A stretch of 6,836 bases of DNA. Source: a virus (Duplodnaviria; Heunggongvirae; Uroviricota; Caudoviricetes). Below the pieces are notes generated by a model. It had not been told where the DNA came from. It worked only from the letters and a program-made list of their open reading frames with translations, and did no database searches. Below, in pieces: positions 1 to 6,836 of this stretch; position 1 is the first letter of the stretch; every line of letters starts with the position of its first letter. Made by a program: the position numbers and the translations under genes. The stretch lies in IMG/VR virus record IMGVR_UViG_2547132127_000012; one strand, written 5' to 3'.

Positions 1-819
1 ATGTGTCAGGTATTTGGTGTATCCAGGAGCGGTTATTACAACTGGGTACAGCATGAACCCTCAGACAGAAAACAAAGTGATGAGCGGCTAAAACTGGAGA
101 TTAAGGTGGCACATATCCGCACTCGCGAAACATATGGAACCCGGCGGCTCCAGACGGAGCTGGCAGAGAATGGCATCATCGTTGGTCGTGACCGACTGGC
201 ATGTCTTCGTAAGGAGCTGAGGCTACGCTGTAAGCAGAAACGCAAGTTCAGAGCGACTACGAACCCGAACCACAATCTGCCAGTTGCGCCAAATCTGCTG
301 AACCAGACGTTCGCTCCTACAGCACCAAATCAGGTCTGGGTGGCGGACCTGACGTATGTTGCCACACAGGAGGGATGGTTGTACCTCGCTGGCATCAAAG
401 ATGTTTATACGTGTGAAATTGTCGGCTACGCCATGGGAGAGCGCATGACAAAAGAGCTGACAGGTAAAGCCCTGTTTATGGCGCTCAGGAGCCAGCGCCC
501 ACCTGCCGGGCTAATCCACCACTCTGATCGAGGTTCACAGTACTGCGCATACGATTACCGGGTCATACAGGAGCAGTCTGGTCTGAAAACATCAATGTCG
601 CGTAAAGGTAACTGTTACGACAACGCTCCGATGGAAAGCTTCTGGGGAACGCTGAAAAATGAGAGCCTGAGCCACTATCGTTTTAATAACCGGGATGAAG
701 CCATCTCAGTAATACGGGAATACATTGAGATTTTCTACAATCGTCAGCGTCGTCACTCTCGTCTGGGGAATATCTCCCCGGCAGCCTTCAGGGAAAAATA
801 TCATCAGATGGCTGCTTAA
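1..819 (+). CDS. IS3-family transposase OrfB (DDE integrase-like catalytic domain), IS600-like
   Basis: 272-aa ORF identical to the OrfB of copy 2. Carries IS3-family/retroviral-integrase-like motifs ([26 protein letters not shown]). Family is established knowledge; the IS600 name is from memory of its OrfA/OrfB. Confidence 0.85.
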
Positions 820-862
820 AAAAAGAACAAATGGTAGTGTCCGCTATTGCCAGTACACCTCA
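1..862 (+). mobile_element. IS3-family insertion sequence (IS600-like), copy 1, 3' portion only (window starts inside the element, at the orfB ATG)
   Basis: Bases 1..862 are identical to 3844..4705 of the complete copy (offset 3843). Both copies end ...gtacacctca, then flanking sequence diverges. The left end and orfA lie upstream of the window. Confidence 0.85.
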
Positions 863-1789
863 GTGAAAGAAGCACCGATTGGTATCGAGGTCATCCCCGC
901 GCACGTCACTGAATATCTGAACAAGGTACTGACTGAAACCGATCATGCCAACCCTGATCCGAAAATCGTGGATATTGCCTGCGGTCGCTCCTCTGCCCCG
1001 ATGCCGCAGCGTGTAACAGAAGAAGGAAAACAGGATGATGAAGAAAAACCGCAGCCATCTGGCGCAATGGCAGATGAACAGGCAACGGCTGAAACAATGG
1101 AACCGGATGCAACTGAACATCATCAGAACACGCAGCCGCTGGATGCTCAGTCACAGGTAAATTCTGTTGATGAGAAATATCAGGAACTGCGGGAAGAACT
1201 CCATGAAGCCCGGAAAAACATTCCGCCCAAAAATCCTGTCGATGCAGACAAATTACTGGCTGCCTCTCGCGGAGAATTTGTTGAAGGGATTAGCGACCCG
1301 AATGATCCGAAATGGATTCCCGGTCATCATATCTCCTCAAATGAAGTCAAAAAAACGGAAAATGAAGTGCGACAGACTGAAGATAAACAGCACCAGAACA
1401 GCGAACCGGAGGAGGGAACACCCTGCAATCAGACTGGCGAGGATAACTGCCCTGACTGTGGCGCGGTGATGGGAGACGCAACTTATCAGGAAACTTTTGA
1501 CGAAAAAAAACCAGATGAAGCACAGGAAGAAGAGCCGAAGAAAACGGAAAAAGCTGATGATTTGTTACCGGAGAACGCTGGCAGCGATCAGCATAATGAT
1601 AGCAATAATGAAACTGGCGAAGATGAACTCAACTGGAAAAAACAGGTGTTGATTGCGGCGGTTTACGGTTTATGTGCGAATCCTGCGTGCATAGCCTATG
1701 CGCCTGCAATCCCTGACATCGCAATGATGATTGCCAACAAGCTTGAAAATTTTGGAGTGACCAGTGATGAGCGCTTACCCGATTTTTGA
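863..1789 (+). CDS. Highly acidic (D/E-rich) low-complexity protein, 3' fragment; 5' end probably removed by the IS insertion
   Basis: The frame is open from inside the IS across the junction at 862/863. The first ATG after the junction (1001) has no Shine-Dalgarno, and no plausible start exists between 863 and 1001. Long D/E/Q-rich tract, a Cys cluster (C-x8-C-x2-C, ...[15 protein letters not shown]...), hydrophobic C-terminus. Stop at 1787-1789 overlaps the next gene's start. Identity unknown; I have a vague, unverifiable impression of resemblance to the acidic central region of Rac RecE. Confidence 0.45.
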
Positions 1790-2039
1790 TCGTATTGAAG
1801 AAATGGCATGGGCTCGCCACTACCAGCAGATCGTTCGTGAAGAAAAAGAAACGGAACTGGCGGACGACCTGGAAAAAGGTCTGCCTCAGCACCTGTTTGA
1901 ATCGCTCTGCATCGACCATTTGCAACGCCACGGTGCCAATAAACAGGCAATCAGCCACGCATTTGATGATGATGTTGAGTTTCAGGAGCGCATGGCAGAA
2001 CACATCCGGTACATGGCTGAAACCATTGCCCACCACTAG
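1767..2039 (+). CDS. Hypothetical 90-aa acidic protein, translationally coupled to the upstream ORF
   Basis: GGAG at 1754-1757, 9 nt before ATG 1767. Start overlaps the upstream stop (1787-1789) by 23 nt. No motif recognised. Confidence 0.5.
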
Positions 2040-2068
2040 GTTGATATTGATTTGGAGGACTAAAATCT

Positions 2069-3166
2069 ATGGCGCTTTTTCAACGAGCAATAAACACACA
2101 GGCCTATCTAAAAGCAGGAATTATGGGGTTTGCTGGCGACGGCAAAACCTACACAGCAAGCGAACTGGCTATTGGTCTGGTAATGCTTATGCGGCAACGG
2201 GGAATTGAAGCTGGTAACCGCCCGGTAATGTTTCTGGACACAGAAACAGGCTCTGACTGGGTTAAACCCCGCTTTGATGCGGAAAATATCGAATTATTTA
2301 CGGCAAAAACCCGCTCGTTTGTTGATCTGCTTGAAGCCATTAATGAAGCGGAAAGCAGCGGTTCCGTAATGATCATCGACTCCATCAGTCACTTCTGGAC
2401 CGGATTATGCGACGAGTATGCCAGACGCCGAAACCGTAAACGAGGACTGGAATTTTCAGGCTGGGCGTGGCTCAAACAGGAGTGGCGACGCTTTACCGAT
2501 CGATTTGTTAACAGTCAGGCGCACATTATTATGTGCGGGCGTGCAGGATATGAGTATGACTTTTTCGAAGGTGATGATGGCAAACGCCAGTTGGCAAAAA
2601 CCGGTATAAAAATGAAAGCAGAAACAGAAACCGGTTATGAACCCTCCATCCTGATCCAGATGGAGAAGCAAATGAACATAGAAACCGGTCAGGTGTGGCG
2701 CACCGCCAGAATACTAAAAGATCGCTCCACCCGTATTGATGGACAGGTATTTTCAAACCCAACATTTAAAAACTTTCTTCCTCATATCGAGTTTCTTAAC
2801 CTGGGAGGTGAACACCCCGGCATCGATACCTCACGGGATAACAGTGAATTATTTGCCAACGACGGTACACCGACATGGCTAAAAGAAAAGCGTGCAAAAG
2901 AAATCGCACTTGATGAAATTATCGAGTTGCTCAACAAGCACCATGGGGGCACCAGTAACGACGCCAAACGCGCAAAAGCTGATTTGCTGGAAAAAACATT
3001 CACCTCCCGCTCATGGGAAAGAATCAAAGGTATGGACTGGCCGACAATCAAAGCTGGTCGTAATGCACTATGGATTGAACTGGAAGGCGTTGAATATGCA
3101 TTCCCGGATCCACAAACACAAAACGAAACGCAACAAGCAGGATACGATGAGAATATTCCGGTGTAA
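2069..3166 (+). CDS. RecA-fold P-loop NTPase (AAA_24/Sak4-like topology) with a ~250-aa C-terminal extension of unknown function
   Basis: GGAGG at 2054-2058, 10 nt before ATG 2069. Walker A GFAGDGKT (aa 20-27), acidic strand motif FLDTETG (aa ~55-61), Walker B VMIIDS (aa ~101-106). This Walker A / D-T-E / hhhhDS order is typical of RecA-like and AAA_24 phage ATPases, not ABC or classical AAA+. Family assignment is from motifs, unverified. Confidence 0.8.
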   Translation: MALFQRAINTQAYLKAGIMGFAGDGKTYTASELAIGLVMLMRQRGIEAGNRPVMFLDTETGSDWVKPRFDAENIELFTAKTRSFVDLLEAINEAESSGSVMIIDSISHFWTGLCDEYARRRNRKRGLEFSGWAWLKQEWRRFTDRFVNSQAHIIMCGRAGYEYDFFEGDDGKRQLAKTGIKMKAETETGYEPSILIQMEKQMNIETGQVWRTARILKDRSTRIDGQVFSNPTFKNFLPHIEFLNLGGEHPGIDTSRDNSELFANDGTPTWLKEKRAKEIALDEIIELLNKHHGGTSNDAKRAKADLLEKTFTSRSWERIKGMDWPTIKAGRNALWIELEGVEYAFPDPQTQNETQQAGYDENIPV

Positions 3167-3216
3167 AACCAAGTGCATTTTGAACACGGTTTTTGAAAAT
3201 ATTAATGGAGGTGTTC

Positions 3217-3405
3217 ATGTATAAAATTACAGCCACTATTGAAAAGGAAGGTGGTTCTCCTACCAGCTGGACAAGATATTCAAAATCTAAACTAACGAAA
3301 TCAGAATGCGAAAAAATGCTCTCAGGGAAAAAAGAAGCAGGCGTTTCCAGAGAGCAGAAAGTAAAACTGATAAATTTTAATTGCGAGAAACTTCTGTCCT
3401 CGTGA
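3217..3405 (+). CDS. Hypothetical 62-aa lysine-rich small protein (MYKITATIEKEGG...)
   Basis: GGAGG at 3207-3211, 5 nt before ATG 3217. Lies 50 nt after the ATPase stop in an AT-rich segment and ends 36 nt before the IS left end. I suspect, but cannot verify, similarity to small Rac-prophage proteins of the ydaC type. Confidence 0.5.
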   Translation: MYKITATIEKEGGSPTSWTRYSKSKLTKSECEKMLSGKKEAGVSREQKVKLINFNCEKLLSS

Positions 3406-3441
3406 GTTGCATTATATCAAAATTAGAACTTCATAGCTGAT

Positions 3442-3470
3442 TGAGATAGCCTGAGTTTAACGGACACTCC
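3442..3470 (+). repeat. IS left terminal inverted repeat (imperfect)
   Basis: Matches the reverse complement of 4677..4705 at the terminal TGAG and the internal CGGACACT block. Confidence 0.5.
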
Positions 3471-3505
3471 TTCCTGAAATAGAATGGCATCAGAAGGAGC
3501 TAATA

Positions 3506-3808
3506 ATGAGCAGAAAAACCCAACGTTACTCTAAAGAGTTCAAAGCCGAAGCTGTCAGAACGGTTCTTGAAAATCAACTTTCGATCAGTGAAGGCGCTTC
3601 CCGATTATCTCTTCCTGAAGGCACTTTAGGACAATGGGTTACCGCCGCCAGAAAAGGGCTCGGTACTCCTGGTTCCCGCACGGTGGCTGAACTGGAATCT
3701 GAAATTCTGCAACTGCGTAAGGCGTTAAATGAAGCTCGCCTTGAGCGCGATATATTAAAAAAAGCAACAGCGTATTTTGCACAGGAGTCGCTGAAAAATA
3801 CGCGTTAA
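3506..3808 (+). CDS. IS3-family transposase OrfA (helix-turn-helix DNA-binding protein with C-terminal leucine-zipper-like region)
   Basis: AGGAG at 3494-3498, 7 nt before ATG 3506. 100-aa protein; the slippery heptamer lies near its 3' end. Confidence 0.9.
   Translation: MSRKTQRYSKEFKAEAVRTVLENQLSISEGASRLSLPEGTLGQWVTAARKGLGTPGSRTVAELESEILQLRKALNEARLERDILKKATAYFAQESLKNTR
3757..3763 (+). other. Programmed -1 ribosomal frameshift slippery heptamer (A AAA AAA) producing the OrfAB fusion transposase
   Basis: AAAAAAA then G at 3757-3764. In the orfA frame it reads ttA AAA AAA Gca. A -1 slip moves codon starts from 2 mod 3 (orfA) to 1 mod 3, the orfB frame (ATG 3844). This is the standard IS3-family arrangement. 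Confidence 0.6.
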
Positions 3809-3843
3809 TCGAACAATGGCGACAACAATTTCCCATTGAAGCG

Positions 3844-4662
3844 ATGTGTCAGGTATTTGGTGTATCCAGGAGCGGTTATTACAACTGGGTACAGCATGAA
3901 CCCTCAGACAGAAAACAAAGTGATGAGCGGCTAAAACTGGAGATTAAGGTGGCACATATCCGCACTCGCGAAACATATGGAACCCGGCGGCTCCAGACGG
4001 AGCTGGCAGAGAATGGCATCATCGTTGGTCGTGACCGACTGGCATGTCTTCGTAAGGAGCTGAGGCTACGCTGTAAGCAGAAACGCAAGTTCAGAGCGAC
4101 TACGAACCCGAACCACAATCTGCCAGTTGCGCCAAATCTGCTGAACCAGACGTTCGCTCCTACAGCACCAAATCAGGTCTGGGTGGCGGACCTGACGTAT
4201 GTTGCCACACAGGAGGGATGGTTGTACCTCGCTGGCATCAAAGATGTTTATACGTGTGAAATTGTCGGCTACGCCATGGGAGAGCGCATGACAAAAGAGC
4301 TGACAGGTAAAGCCCTGTTTATGGCGCTCAGGAGCCAGCGCCCACCTGCCGGGCTAATCCACCACTCTGATCGAGGTTCACAGTACTGCGCATACGATTA
4401 CCGGGTCATACAGGAGCAGTCTGGTCTGAAAACATCAATGTCGCGTAAAGGTAACTGTTACGACAACGCTCCGATGGAAAGCTTCTGGGGAACGCTGAAA
4501 AATGAGAGCCTGAGCCACTATCGTTTTAATAACCGGGATGAAGCCATCTCAGTAATACGGGAATACATTGAGATTTTCTACAATCGTCAGCGTCGTCACT
4601 CTCGTCTGGGGAATATCTCCCCGGCAGCCTTCAGGGAAAAATATCATCAGATGGCTGCTTAA
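3844..4662 (+). CDS. IS3-family transposase OrfB (DDE catalytic domain); in vivo made mainly as OrfAB by -1 frameshift
   Basis: 272-aa ORF identical to 1..819; lies in the -1 frame relative to orfA. Confidence 0.9.
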   Translation: MCQVFGVSRSGYYNWVQHEPSDRKQSDERLKLEIKVAHIRTRETYGTRRLQTELAENGIIVGRDRLACLRKELRLRCKQKRKFRATTNPNHNLPVAPNLLNQTFAPTAPNQVWVADLTYVATQEGWLYLAGIKDVYTCEIVGYAMGERMTKELTGKALFMALRSQRPPAGLIHHSDRGSQYCAYDYRVIQEQSGLKTSMSRKGNCYDNAPMESFWGTLKNESLSHYRFNNRDEAISVIREYIEIFYNRQRRHSRLGNISPAAFREKYHQMAA

Positions 4663-4676
4663 AAAAAGAACAAATG

Positions 4677-4705
4677 GTAGTGTCCGCTATTGCCAGTACA
4701 CCTCA
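4677..4705 (+). repeat. IS right terminal inverted repeat (imperfect)
   Basis: Reverse complement aligns with 3442..3470. The same sequence ends copy 1 at 834..862. Confidence 0.5.
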
Positions 4706-4727
4706 GATTATTAAAAATCAACCACAC

Positions 4728-4756
4728 CCGCCAGTATTCTGTATATTTACTGGCGG
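4728..4756. repeat. 9-bp perfect inverted repeat (ccgccagta N11 tactggcgg) between the IS right end and xis
   Basis: 4728-4736 ccgccagta is the reverse complement of 4748-4756 tactggcgg; the 11-nt spacer is AT-rich. No downstream T-run, so not a canonical intrinsic terminator. Confidence 0.5.
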
Positions 4757-4778
4757 TCATATCGTGAGAGGTATGGCA

Positions 4779-5060
4779 ATGAATCTTGTGACACTCAAAA
4801 CGTGGGGAAAACTCAGATATCCGGATAACCCACCATCAATATCAACGCTGAGACGATGGGCAAGGAATGGAAACATTTATCCTGCACCTGCACTACACGG
4901 GAGGAGTTACAGGGTGGTTCCGGAGGCTTTCTATATCAACCCAAATAAGGTTGATACCGATATAACACACCATCAGCCTAATGGGCGACAAGGGAGAGAC
5001 AGTCCGTTAATGGAGAAGTTAAAACATGCAGCGGAAAAAATACGATCCCAATTTGCCTAG
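4779..5060 (+). CDS. xis: Excisionase (lambda Xis-like, winged-helix recombination directionality factor)
   Basis: GAGAGG at 4765-4770, 8 nt before ATG 4779. Product MNLVTLKTWGKLRYPDNPPSISTLRRWARNGNIYPAPALHGRSYRV... resembles lambda Xis (MYLTLQEWNARQRRPRSLETVRRWVRECRIFPPP...). Overlaps int by 35 nt, as in lambda xis-int. The track's longer ORF start (4674) lies inside the IS and is rejected. Confidence 0.7.
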   Translation: MNLVTLKTWGKLRYPDNPPSISTLRRWARNGNIYPAPALHGRSYRVVPEAFYINPNKVDTDITHHQPNGRQGRDSPLMEKLKHAAEKIRSQFA

Positions 5061-6102
5061 AAACTTAACATATCGAAGGAGAGACAAAGCATATTACTGG
5101 CGCAACCCTCTGACGAAAGAAGAATTTACACTAGGTAAAATTTCAAGAAGAGATGCAGTAGCGCAGGCAATTGAAGCAAATCATTATATATACAAAAACT
5201 ACTCTCCTGCTGCCCTAATTGAAAAGCTTAAAGGGGTCGACTCATTTACTATGGCAGGCTGGATTGAACGTTACAAAACGATTCTTATAAGGAGAAAAGC
5301 GTCCAGAAATACTTATAAAACTCGGGTAAATCAACTGGAGACAATAAAAGAAAAATTAGGAGGGGTTTTACTGACAGAAATAACCACTCGCCATATCGCC
5401 GAGTTTCTTGATTTGTGGATTGAAGGAGGGAAAAACACGATGGCAGGATCAATGCGTTCTGTGTTATCTGATATGTTCCGCGAAGCCATTGTTGAAGGAC
5501 GTATATCTCAAAATCCAGTAACGCCAACAAGAGCACCGAAAATAGTAGTTACAAGAGAACGGCTGAAACTAAAGACATACAACTGCATCAGGGAGGCAGC
5601 AGATCAACTTCCGGCATGGTTCCCATTAGCTATGGACTTAGCCCTTGTAACAGGACAACGTCGCGAAGACATAACGAATATGCGGTTCAGTGATATTTAT
5701 GATGATCGTCTCCACATCAGGCAAATTAAGACAGGAATGATGATTGCTATCCCCCTGTCACTCAGCCTTCCTGTCGCTGGTTTACGACTTGGTGCAGTAG
5801 TTGAACAGTGCCGCATGGTAAGTAGGGGGGATTATCTAATCAGTGCCGGGATTAGAAAAAACAGCCCTGACGGCAGCATTCACCCGGACGGCCTGACAAA
5901 GAAATTTGTCGCAGCCAGAAAATTAACAGGTATCCTGTTCAGTGAAAACCCACCAACTTTTCACGAAATCAGAAGCCTGGCTGGACGATTGTACAAAGAA
6001 ATATGTGGAGAAGAATTTGCTCAGCGTCTACTTGGCCACACATCGGAGAAGACAACAAAAATGTATCTTGATGAGAGAGAAAAAACGTACTTACTGCTCT
6101 GA
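5026..6102 (+). CDS. int: Lambda-family tyrosine integrase (site-specific recombinase)
   Basis: GGAG at 5012-5015, 10 nt before ATG. N-terminal arm-binding region ([30 protein letters not shown]) parallels lambda Int. Catalytic motifs present: [10 protein letters not shown] (Arg), [11 protein letters not shown] (His-x-x-Arg), [13 protein letters not shown] (His...Tyr nucleophile). Confidence 0.9.
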
Positions 6103-6200: not shown

Positions 6201-6233
6201 GACGTTTGCAACTAATTGATTTTAAATACAATT

Positions 6234-6267
6234 AAAAAAAGACCGAATACGATTCCTGTATTCGGTC
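6234..6267 (-). terminator. Intrinsic terminator of SdsR (10-bp perfect stem, 7-nt loop, then U7 on the minus strand)
   Basis: gaccgaatac (6241-6250) pairs with gtattcggtc (6258-6267); loop gattcct. A7 at 6234-6240 on the plus strand is U7 on the minus strand directly after the hairpin. Confidence 0.8.
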
Positions 6268-6336
6268 CAGGGAAATGGCTCTTGGGAGAGAGCCGTGCGC
6301 TAAAAGTTGGCATTAATGCAGGCTTAGTTGCCTTGC
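6235..6336 (-). ncRNA. sdsR: SdsR (RyeB) small regulatory RNA, RpoS-dependent, ~102 nt
   Basis: Minus strand reads GCAAGGCAACTAAGCCTGCATTAATGCCAACTTTTAGCGCACGGCTCTCTCCCAAGAGCCATTTCCCTGGACCGAATACAGGAATCGTATTCGGTC then a T-run, which matches my recollection of enterobacterial SdsR. Internal hairpin ggctct...agagcc, terminal terminator, sigma-S-type -10 just upstream. Confidence 0.8.
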
Positions 6337-6339
6337 CCT

Positions 6340-6375
6340 TTAAGAATAGATGACGACGCCAGGTTTTCCAGTTTG
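6340..6375 (-). promoter_or_regulatory. Sigma-S-type promoter of sdsR
   Basis: On the minus strand, -14 to -4 relative to the proposed start (6336) reads TCTATTCTTAA, close to the sigma-S extended -10 consensus TCTATACTTAA including the -13 C. No clear -35, as is usual for sigma-S promoters. Confidence 0.5.
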
Positions 6376-6494: not shown

Positions 6495-6836
6495 TTAACA
6501 GAGTTTTTCAGCTCGTTCTATAAACGGTGCCAGACTCATTTTTTCGCCGGGATTGTTAGGATCATCAATCTGAATCACCGAAATGGGTTGGGCATTGGTC
6601 TTCCCACTGGCAACTTCCTTTTGTGCGATATCGTTTAAAGGATACTGCACGAGGGTACTTGGGTTGATGACATACAAAGCATTACCCGGTCGGCAAGTCA
6701 GCATTACCTCTTCGCGATTAAACGCCCATTTGTCTTTACCCACTTCAAAACGACTCACGGTTATCACCTGTGGAGCCGCCAGCGCCGCTGCAGAACTGGT
6801 GAGTAACAGAAACGCCAGAATACTTTTTTTCATCAT
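6495..6836 (-). CDS. yebY: Small exported protein with Sec signal peptide ([20 protein letters not shown]|APQ), probably host protein YebY (DUF2511)
   Basis: 113-aa ORF with a typical n/h/c signal peptide and AxA cleavage motif. Its position next to sdsR/ryeA matches my recollection of the E. coli pphA-ryeA/sdsR-yebY neighbourhood. The ATG is at the window edge (6834-6836), so upstream signals are not visible. Confidence 0.8.

Follow-up and report, generated by a model that had tools for sequence, protein, structure and literature searches.

A probable remnant of a Rac-like prophage recombination region between two IS600 copies in Shigella flexneri

The Rac prophage of E. coli K-12, integrated at ttcA, is a defective lambdoid prophage that has lost most of its genome and retains the gene order kilR-ydaE-racC-recE-recT-ralR-rcbA/ralA-xisR-intR. 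In the type I RalR/RalA system, the 179-nt antitoxin RNA RalA lies antisense within ydaC, next to the toxin gene ralR (PMC4041452). A prophage of E. coli F2_407_2_2 (locus L012), inserted at the yebY site, carries lambda Red genes instead, in the series RecE-N-like, gam, Bet, Exo, RalR, DUF1187, xis and int. Recombinases of the Sak4 type (HK620 Sak4, PMC5928155; 80alpha-type, PDB 8rc5) are core-only RecA proteins with no extra domains, and a cognate ssb gene adjoins up to 80% of sak4 genes (PMC5928155). Finally, the genome paper of S. flexneri 5b 8401 reported IS-mediated inversions, one of them ascribed to IS600, and inversions of terC in all sequenced Shigella (PMC1550401).

We analyzed a 6,836-nt stretch of DNA (the window) that matches the genome of S. 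flexneri 5b 8401 (CP000266; PMC1550401) with 100% identity over its full length. A first-pass annotation had described positions 863-3441 as a block of four genes, suggestive of one operon, trapped between two identical IS copies. The observation itself was confirmed, but its interpretation stands only in part.

Gene content and synteny of the block

Recombination genes in the window are followed on the same strand by xis, int and the attachment junction, the arrangement by which an early-left region is recognized. The block is syntenic with the kilR-ydaE-racC-recE-recT-ralR-ydaC-xis-int segment of K-12 Rac, in gene order as well as orientation, and with the prophage loci of E. coli FDAARGOS_944 (L001) and of L012. 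The RecE N-terminal region of Rac is 69%, and its ydaC/RalA segment 96%, identical to the counterparts here, and both elements are defective lambdoid prophages with most of the genome lost. We conclude that positions 863-3441 very probably come from a decayed Rac-like lambdoid prophage and represent what survives, at the distal end, of its early-left (PL-type) recombination region; with equally high confidence, its integration site in S. flexneri is placed in the ryeA/sdsR-yebY intergenic region. Rather than forming a four-gene operon of its own, the block belongs to the distal end of a lambdoid early-left transcription unit. The prophage features of the window are as follows.

863-1789, plus strand: 3' remnant (codons 345-652) of a RecE-N-terminal-like gene, recognized by comparison with an intact homolog
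1767-2039, plus strand: gam, RecBCD inhibitor family, 90 codons (PF06064, E = 3.9e-52; phrog_259)
2069-3166, plus strand: AAA_24 ATPase, 365 aa, putative Sak4-like recombinase (PF13479, E = 4.3e-15)
3198-3224, plus strand: vestige of the ralR toxin gene, last 9 codons (tblastn against residues 57-65 of L012 RalR, 8/9 identical)
3217-3405, plus strand: ydaC/rcbA-like DUF1187 ORF, 62 codons (PF06688, E = 1.7e-36; NCBIfam PRK09750; GGAGG at 3206-3210)
3223-3401, minus strand: RalA antitoxin sRNA homolog, full length (Rfam RF02694, model positions 1-179)
4779-5060, plus strand: excisionase gene xis, 93 codons (PF07825; phrog_629; gene calls in L002)
5026-6102, plus strand: lambda-type tyrosine integrase (PF00589, PF22022, PF09003)
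6230-6374, no strand assigned: bidirectional SraC(RyeA)/SdsR(RyeB) sRNA locus (Rfam RF00101, RF00111) containing the prophage/chromosome junction at about 6233
6495-6836, minus strand: yebY, beyond the junction

All four same-strand ORFs (863-1789, 1767-2039, 2069-3166 and 3217-3405) were found as first described, with a 23-nt overlap between ORF1 and gam, a 29-nt gap from gam to AAA_24 and a 50-nt gap from there to the DUF1187 ORF. Direct reading of the sequence likewise bore out Shine-Dalgarno sites on genes 2-4 (GGAG at 1753-1756, GGAGG at 2055-2059 and GGAGG at 3206-3210). Matches to Gam (PF06064), AAA_24 (PF13479) and DUF1187 (PF06688) profiles identify these three as real genes and not chance ORFs. 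A longer xis ORF, 4674-5060, begins inside the IS. Past the junction, chromosomal homology starts at K-12 coordinate 1,923,103 and runs in forward orientation.

The proposed 5' truncation of the first ORF was confirmed. E. coli FDAARGOS_944 has an uninterrupted homolog of 652 codons (L001 5968-7926), of which the window keeps only the last 308; the reading frame is open from the IS junction, and no start codon with a Shine-Dalgarno site follows the junction within 863-1789. Comparison with prophages that lack the IS, by which both the intact gene and the native promoter were to be recovered, delivered the former; the usual place of the promoter is next to the repressor gene, several kb upstream. 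Against the NCBIfam exoVIII model the RecE-like gene scored 380 bits, with a cut-off of 1269, and the match of the remnant, to model positions 339-596 of 877, was likewise below cut-off. The intact protein matches PF06630 and positions 7-622 of 883 of phrog_607, and the 652-aa homolog aligns only with residues 1-585 of K-12 RecE, at 69% identity; the C-terminal PD-(D/E)XK nuclease domain (model positions ~600 to the end) is absent even from this intact homolog. The name "RecE family exodeoxyribonuclease", given to a gene without the nuclease domain, should accordingly be corrected.

In gam, a nonsense change of CAG to TAG at 2037-2039 (C>T at 2037 relative to L001) removes the last 8 residues of the 98-aa allele found in L005, L008, L010 and L011. 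Consistently, the protein covers PF06064 profile positions 1-90 of 98, the missing 8 being those lost to the nonsense codon, which can be seen as a sign of decay. Besides the ATG at 1767, a GTG at 1764 is an alternative start.

In comparison with Rac, the window element lacks the RecE nuclease domain, recT and ralR and has gam and AAA_24 in their place. Its integrase and integration site (ryeA/sdsR-yebY versus ttcA) also differ, and it is cut by IS600.

The AAA_24 ATPase and the RalA locus

AAA_24 occupies the slot held by bet-exo-ralR in sister prophages. L012 shares the position of gam and the flanking genes with the window, but where L012 has bet-exo-ralR (~1.7 kb) the window has the single AAA_24 gene, after which ralR persists only as its last 9 codons. 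This ralR vestige marks the boundary of a module swap.

The core of the AAA_24 protein is RecA-like, with Walker A (GFAGDGKT, residues 20-27) and Walker B (VMIID, residues 100-104) motifs, features that it has in common with Sak4 recombinases. A structure search returned a RecA/Sak4-like fold; a PDB sequence search gave no match, so that only the fold search was informative. The best PHROG, phrog_1366, is annotated "unknown function". At 365 aa, however, the protein is longer than the solved Sak4 chain (~220 aa) because of a helical C-terminal extension, predicted to span ~100-165 aa, of which residues 269-357 form the conserved, confidently modelled part; the core-only definition of Sak4 (PMC5928155) therefore does not apply to it. 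The partner gene differs as well, being ssb for Sak4 and gam for enterobacterial AAA_24: the window contains no ssb gene, and enterobacterial members of the family have Gam upstream instead. In 80 viral loci, gam was directly upstream of AAA_24 in 44 and SSB directly downstream in 7, an arrangement also seen in Achromobacter-type prophages; Bet adjoined it in none. Prophages of beta-proteobacteria place AAA_24 between a cI-like repressor and int, and the inducible Cronobacter phage phiES15 carries gam together with an 84%-identical homolog. Across temperate phages of gamma- and beta-proteobacteria, identity within the family is 60-75%. A PADLOC defence-system scan of all four proteins of the block gave no match.

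Judged by fold and gene context only, AAA_24 is most likely a putative single-strand-annealing recombinase that would replace Bet/Exo or RecT/RecE. More tentatively, and at somewhat less than even chances, it may represent an uncharacterised "long Sak4-like" family whose members replace these pairs alone, in company with Gam in enterobacteria or SSB elsewhere. A conserved AAA_24 family in the Red-recombinase slot is only a mildly novel lead, but one that offers a candidate recombineering enzyme.

The fourth ORF coincides with RalA. The RF02694 match scored 216 bits (gathering score 170), and the window sequence differs from K-12 ralA at 7 of 179 positions (96% identity). An extended -10 element, TGaTATAAT, is present at 3419-3411 on the minus strand, and no element of the block other than RalA retains a promoter-like sequence of its own. 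Apart from its last codons, ralR is missing from the window, as determined by tblastn with L012 RalR; RalA is therefore an orphan antitoxin, and its re-use against another target in Shigella is a related possibility. The DUF1187 ORF shows an excess of variation at third codon positions (13 of 21 variable sites, P = 0.007), which in this small sample is suggestive of coding. When phage genomes were searched for divergent homologs of the protein, 6 records matched, all at >=92% identity. YdaC protein was undetected in K-12 (PMC4041452), which counts against translation. "Gene 4" may be chiefly an antisense RalA sRNA locus, and annotation should show that the DUF1187 ORF conceals a RalA sRNA without its toxin partner.

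The two IS600 copies

The element that flanks the block on both sides is IS600 (PGAP name), with an IS3 family transposase according to NCBIfam (transpos_IS3, profile positions 1-86 and 106-369).

1-862, plus strand: IS600 copy 1, 3' 862 nt (IS positions 403-1264), exact repeat of 3844-4705
1-819, plus strand: orfB reading frame of copy 1, the window beginning inside the element
3439-3441, no strand assigned: left GAT target-site duplication of copy 2 (direct reading; GAT occurs once in L001, at 9577-9579)
3442-4705, plus strand: IS600 copy 2, complete, 1264 bp, with TG...CA ends (ORFs, repeat, PGAP, NCBIfam and target-site duplication)
3506-3808, plus strand: orfA (HTH) of copy 2 (ORF list; NCBIfam)
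3844-4662, plus strand: orfB (DDE/rve) of copy 2, in the other frame (ORF list; NCBIfam)
4706-4708, no strand assigned: right GAT target-site duplication of copy 2 (direct reading and comparison with L001)

Copy 2 ends in TGAGATAGCC...ACACCTCA, imperfect inverted repeats with TG...CA. Its length of 1264 bp, its ends, the orfA/orfB arrangement and the 3-bp duplication all match IS600 and the IS3 family without any difference, making it a textbook instance. Full copy 1 corresponds to L002 7531-8794. Positions 1-863 and 3844-4706 form an exact direct repeat with 0 mismatches; the IS ends at 862/4705, so the G shared at 863/4706 is flanking sequence. The copies had been called 100% identical, which is true of the 863-nt repeat but not of the full copies: in the source genome these differ at IS positions 5, 307, 313 and 324, all of them in copy 1 sequence beyond the start of the window. 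In other strains the copies differ at 3-9 sites even within these 863 nt.

The two copies have different histories. Copy 2 lies upstream of both RalA and xis, 40 nt from the start of the former and 73 nt from the latter, and its empty site is seen in the relatives L001, L008, L010 and L011. It is a simple insertion with its own GAT/GAT duplication. In L008, L010 and L011, copy 1 and the block are present but copy 2 is missing; the block is thus not trapped between an IS pair, copy 2 being a later, independent insertion. Deletion of the block by IS600-IS600 recombination was seen in none of the assemblies examined, in which only 10 places were compared.

Copy 1 has no target duplication, its left flank being GGA and its right flank GTG. 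To its left lies the chromosomal gene pgrR, in inverted orientation, at K-12 coordinate 1,392,424. Given this inverted flank and the lack of a duplication, copy 1 reads as a recombinant joint and not a simple insertion. The regions that it joins are ~530 kb apart in K-12 coordinates and in opposite orientation, which, together with the missing duplication, points to an IS600-mediated inversion. The suggestion that the block had lost its promoter and 5' end to the IS was right insofar as both are absent upstream, where pgrR is found instead, but simple insertion of the IS was not the cause. The same IS600/ORF1 junction was found in 0 of 5426 complete E. coli genomes, which confines the event to the Shigella lineage.

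The reciprocal junction, in which the 5' half of the RecE-like gene would meet the IS600 left end through GTG (GCNTCNGTG joined to the IS600 left end), gave 0 matches in a contig scan, which is uninformative, as each species in the set is represented by a single genome and Shigella probably by none. When the first 344 aa were used as a protein query, no IS-truncated Shigella fragment of the 5' half of gene 1 turned up. Two 357-aa candidates for such fragments, P0008 and P0012, extend beyond the IS site and were discarded as contig-end partials. Possibly the remaining prophage has been deleted, or the joint arose in a more complex way.

Two IS600 copies in direct orientation around a discrete 2.6-kb gene block could also be taken for a composite transposon by which the recombination genes were moved together. 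We consider this extremely improbable: the outer flanks, GGA and GAT, give no unit-wide target duplication, copy 2 has a GAT pair of its own and splits sequence that is contiguous in the uninterrupted homolog, strains with copy 1 and the block but no copy 2 exist (L008, L010, L011), and the cargo is not foreign, being colinear with xis-int-attR of the same prophage. An artefact in the 2006 Sanger genome, either a duplicated IS or a spurious perfect identity of the copies, is very unlikely. The 8401 copies are identical over their last 940 nt, whereas in the same stretch of five other strains the copies differ at 3-9 sites, and consensus collapse could produce such a tract; gene conversion between close direct repeats accounts for it equally well, and the 8401 copies still differ at the 4 positions in their first 324 nt. 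Moreover, the two IS copies with the 2.6 kb between them recur in at least eight independent long assemblies, among them CP026799, CP084879, CP049606, UGYR01, UAUS01, JANXIZ01 and AMKF01, which rules out an assembly duplication. The target-duplication pattern and the recurrence in several assemblies led us to reject both the composite transposon and the assembly artefact.

History and present state of the block

It is unlikely that the block persists as a domesticated module, in which gam/AAA_24 (recombination or anti-RecBCD) or RalA would be useful and expressed either by read-through from copy 1 or from a hybrid promoter. Many Shigella/S. flexneri assemblies carry an exactly conserved AAA_24 protein (155 index blocks), from which a retained function in Shigella might conceivably be argued; in addition, good Shine-Dalgarno sites are kept on genes 2-4, the stretch from the IS600 end to 2210 contains no predicted plus-strand terminator, the extended -10 of RalA is preserved, and inter-repeat deletion is absent from the assemblies examined. 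However, identity among very close strains tells little of selection. An AAA_24 allele without the first 105 aa, and so without Walker A/B, occurs in 67 S. flexneri sequences (P0151), the gene is split in several IMG/VR loci, in this lineage gam ends early at a nonsense codon, and ralR, the target of RalA, is gone. Nor do promoter predictions favor expression: a promoter and terminator scan of 600-4800 found 4 promoter-like sites, with 5.7 expected in shuffled sequence, which is not above chance, and no outward hybrid promoter at copy 1 was apparent in it; the TTGCCA that points outward from the right end of the IS lacks a usable -10 at copy 1. Most likely the block is by now non-functional prophage debris, presumably silent, with transcription amounting at best to weak read-through from IS600 copy 1.

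The decay of the prophage can be pictured as follows. The ancestral order would have been kilR-ydaE-racC-like genes, a RecE-N-like gene (652 aa), gam, AAA_24, ydaC with antisense RalA, xis, int and attR. In the live phage this stretch would have been transcribed from a repressor-controlled early promoter several kb upstream, with Gam blocking RecBCD and AAA_24 acting as an annealing recombinase. IS600 would then have entered the RecE-like gene at codon 345 and recombined with an IS600 in pgrR, inverting ~530 kb (K-12 coordinates) and producing a hybrid IS600, copy 1, that joins pgrR to the 3' half of the RecE-like gene. Such an event would have severed the block from its promoter and from the remaining prophage. 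Later, in a sub-lineage, copy 2 would have inserted into the spacer between ydaC/RalA and xis, duplicating GAT, and gam would have gained its nonsense codon thereafter.

The locus is already known biology, and such decay is ordinary in Shigella; beyond correct annotation it is of minor importance. It neatly illustrates the way in which IS600 reshapes Shigella genomes: between one copy that marks an old rearrangement joint and another that is a later simple insertion, stranded prophage genes are gathering nonsense and truncation mutations.

Source and layout of the block

The window matches CP000266.1 (1,881,364-1,888,199), the genome of Shigella flexneri 5b strain 8401 (PMC1550401), at 100% identity. 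This genome was already published in 2006, and all of the categories met here (IS600, Shigella genome decay, the Rac/lambda recombination region and RalA) are well known. A first-pass annotation, made from the sequence alone, had allowed that the IS pair might be an assembly duplication. This is excluded, since eight or more independent long assemblies show the same IS-block-IS arrangement. The features of the locus are as follows.

IS600 copy 1: ends at 862; its start is cut by the window edge
ORF1 (gene 1, RecE-N-terminal-like): 863-1789, plus strand; open reading frame from the IS junction
ORF2 (gene 2, gam): ATG 1767-2039, plus strand; GTG 1764 is an alternative start; overlaps ORF1 by 23 nt
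ORF3 (gene 3, AAA_24 ATPase): 2069-3166, plus strand; preceded by a 29-nt gap
ORF4 (gene 4, DUF1187): ATG 3217-3405, plus strand; preceded by a 50-nt gap
RalA sRNA homolog: 3223-3401, minus strand; full length (Rfam, 216 bits versus a gathering score of 170)
IS600 copy 2: 3442-4705; complete, 1264 bp, with TG...CA ends

The tight packing of four plus-strand ORFs described earlier is borne out by these coordinates, and a GGAG or GGAGG motif lies 6-10 nt 5' of each of genes 2-4. Three ORFs gave very strong matches to curated families: Gam (PF06064, 3.9e-52), AAA_24 (PF13479, 4.3e-15) and DUF1187 (PF06688, 1.7e-36).

E. coli FDAARGOS_944 carries an uninterrupted homolog within a prophage (locus L001; 99.3% identity over 864-3442), where the order is Rha, YdaE, a racC-like gene, a 652-codon "RecE family" gene, Gam, AAA ATPase, DUF1187, xis and int. 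Comparison with this IS-free relative recovers the intact gene 1 and confirms its truncation at the 5' end: the window keeps codons 345-652, the IS junction directly follows codon 344, and Val345 is encoded by the GTG at 863. The 652-aa protein is 69% identical to K-12 RecE over RecE residues 1-585 and also matches PF06630 and positions 7-622 of 883 of phrog_607; the C-terminal nuclease domain is wholly absent. The window fragment covers positions 339-596 of 877 of the exoVIII model, with a score far under the family cut-off. Judged from its sequence, the intact gene 1 product would not be an exonuclease either.

Of the 17 differences from L001, 13 fall in the 330 nt next to the IS600 copy 1 junction (864-1194 versus L001 7001-7331) and four in the remaining 2250 nt of the block; this clustering suggests a mosaic recombination boundary within the RecE-like gene. 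L001 homology ends 56 nt beyond IS600 copy 2 (window 4762), from where a different xis-int module follows. Within that region, a 128-codon ORF (4674-5060), called excisionase in some annotations, begins inside IS600 copy 2 at 4674; the true xis start is most likely 4779, giving 93 codons. At locus L005 (CP100042.1), the block is broken right after the AAA_24 gene, past locus position 11114 (window 3182). There it adjoins a stretch that carries DUF1233, a sitABCD-like ABC transporter and genes for tail fibres, a further rearrangement.

IS600 copies and chromosomal junctions

The repeat flanking the block is IS600, an IS3-family element, and window 1-863 is identical to 3844-4706. The 100% identity reported for the two copies holds within the window, but the full copies of strain 8401 (7531-8794 and 11374-12637 of locus L002) differ at IS positions 5, 307, 313 and 324, all outside the window, and are identical across positions 325-1264 (last 940 nt). 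In five other strains, copy 1 and copy 2 differ at 3-9 sites in the last 863 nt. The perfect in-window identity is therefore particular to strain 8401 or its assembly, and could reflect either gene conversion between neighbouring copies or a collapsed consensus of the Sanger assembly. Copy 1 of these five strains also carries a nested IS: in several S. flexneri strains (loci L003, L004, L006, L007 and L009; ~6600-7900), it is split after about position 377 by another IS3-family element of ~1.3 kb in opposite orientation, absent from 8401.

A GAT stands at either end of copy 2 (3439-3441 and 4706-4708), the homolog without the IS reads ...GCTGATTATTAAAA... with a single GAT at this site, and the copy is absent altogether from loci L008, L010 and L011. 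Copy 2 arose later, by simple transposition into the spacer between ydaC/RalA and xis. The flanks of copy 1 are unlike, GGA on the left and GTG on the right. Its junction is common to all Shigella loci examined, including those without copy 2, and it is hence the older event. To its left lies non-prophage DNA: pgrR, broken at K-12 1,392,424, then mppA, ynaI, ynaJ, uspE, fnr and ogt, the whole stretch being inverted with respect to K-12. Right of the prophage, the chromosome begins at K-12 1,923,103 (the sdsR 3' end, inside ryeA) and runs forward through yebY, copD, copC and holE. This prophage/chromosome junction (6230-6374) is within the bidirectional SraC(RyeA)/SdsR(RyeB) sRNA locus, both Rfam models being matched full length there; the locus is reportedly a known hot spot for phage DNA insertion.

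Flanks of this kind point to recombination between a pair of IS600 copies in inverse orientation. One copy would have lain in pgrR and the other in the RecE-like gene, and their recombination would have inverted ~530 kb around the terminus. Such an inversion fits the published account of 8401, in which IS-mediated inversions, one assigned to IS600, are described and terC inversions are noted in all sequenced Shigella (PMC1550401). The reciprocal junction was not found by a DNA pattern scan of genome contigs (one genome per species, probably none from Shigella) or by a protein search with the N-terminal part of gene 1. The proposal that the block lost its promoter and 5' end to the IS stands as to truncation and promoter loss, but the mechanism becomes a rearrangement joint followed by a later, independent insertion.

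RalA and the present state of the block

Gene 4, a ydaC/rcbA-type DUF1187 ORF, had been read as one gene of a probable operon. The plus-strand ORF is real, but that reading needs revision, with the RalA homolog (96% identical to K-12 ralA) lying antisense within it. RalA serves as antitoxin to the RalR DNase in K-12 Rac, where it is encoded entirely within ydaC on the opposite strand and where YdaC protein went undetected (PMC4041452). In contrast to K-12, the ralR toxin gene is missing here save for its last 9 codons, which leaves RalA as an orphan type I antitoxin. Its extended -10 (TGaTATAAT, 3419-3411, minus strand) is conserved with K-12, and IS600 copy 2 lies just 40 nt upstream of the RalA start. 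The DUF1187 ORF may be translated as well: of 21 sites that vary among its available alleles, 13 fall at third codon positions (P=0.007). However, no divergent protein homologs were found in phage genomes.

The early promoter of relatives, several kb upstream beside the repressor gene, is lost to the block. A promoter scan within the block gave no promoter-like signal above chance, and at copy 1 the outward TTGCCA hexamer of the IS right end is not paired with a usable -10. The block may still be weakly transcribed by read-through from the IS600 promoter, since no plus-strand terminator is predicted before 2210.

In gam, a CAG codon has become TAG (2037-2039) through a C>T substitution at 2037, which shortens Gam from 98 to 90 residues by removing the last 8; relatives L005, L008, L010 and L011 encode the 98-aa form. 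The nonsense codon occurs in strains carrying IS600 copy 2, and not in these four loci. A S. flexneri AAA_24 allele (P0151, 67 member sequences) lacks the first 105 residues, and with them Walker A and B. The gam nonsense codon and this shortened allele are signs of decay. In several IMG/VR loci (L058 and L074 among them) the AAA_24 gene is split by insertions; these splits and the P0151 shortening look like independent decay events. No block protein matched any PADLOC defence family.

In our reading, the block is prophage debris, stranded and most likely non-functional. That it persists across strains (10 genomic places compared) is most simply explained by short evolutionary time and a low deletion rate between the 1.26-kb repeats, not by selection. 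Overall, the initial observation is borne out and, in its interpretation, truncation and promoter loss are upheld; the mechanism, the degree of identity between the two copies and the view of gene 4 had to be amended.

The AAA_24 ATPase

Gene 3 encodes a 365-aa AAA_24 ATPase whose Walker A (GFAGDGKT) and Walker B (VMIID) motifs are invariant in 35 homologs. An AlphaFold model (pLDDT 83) comprises a RecA-like core and a helical C-terminal region. In PHROG, the protein matches phrog_1366 (7e-80), annotated as unknown function, and more weakly a Sak4-like family (1.4e-8).

In E. coli F2_407_2_2, the yebY site is likewise occupied by a sister prophage, with the order kilR, ydaE, a hypothetical gene, RecE-N-like, Gam, Bet, Exo, RalR, DUF1187, xis, int, yebY. 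The AAA_24 gene therefore occupies the exact position of bet-exo-ralR, which it replaces here, and the 9-codon ralR remnant (3198-3224) is the scar of this swap. Among 5426 complete E. coli genomes, the AAA_24 version of the block was found in only 10.

As a family, the protein is widespread, with 60-75% identity in Pseudomonas, Achromobacter, Roseateles, Aquabacterium and other genera; such identity between Enterobacteriaceae and Burkholderiales or Pseudomonas is unusually high conservation for a phage protein. Beta-proteobacterial prophages carry the gene between a cI-like repressor and integrase, homologs also occur in viral contigs of roughly 40 kb, and phiES15, a UV-inducible phage of Cronobacter, encodes an 84%-identical homolog adjoining gam. 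In Achromobacter-type prophages, ssb lies directly 3' of the AAA_24 gene with overlapping stop and start codons (L014/L015 6001-7583; L013, L016).

Across 80 viral loci, Gam is directly upstream in 44 and SSB directly downstream in 7, and none has Bet within 4 kb. The Sak4 proteins act as ATP-dependent annealases, and their genes mostly adjoin an ssb gene (PMC5928155). Given this context and precedent, the AAA_24 protein is, by analogy, most likely a putative Sak4-like recombinase. It differs from Sak4 in being more than a core-only protein and in having no adjacent SSB gene at this locus. The uncharacterised long Sak4-like AAA_24 family is the only forward-looking lead from the locus.
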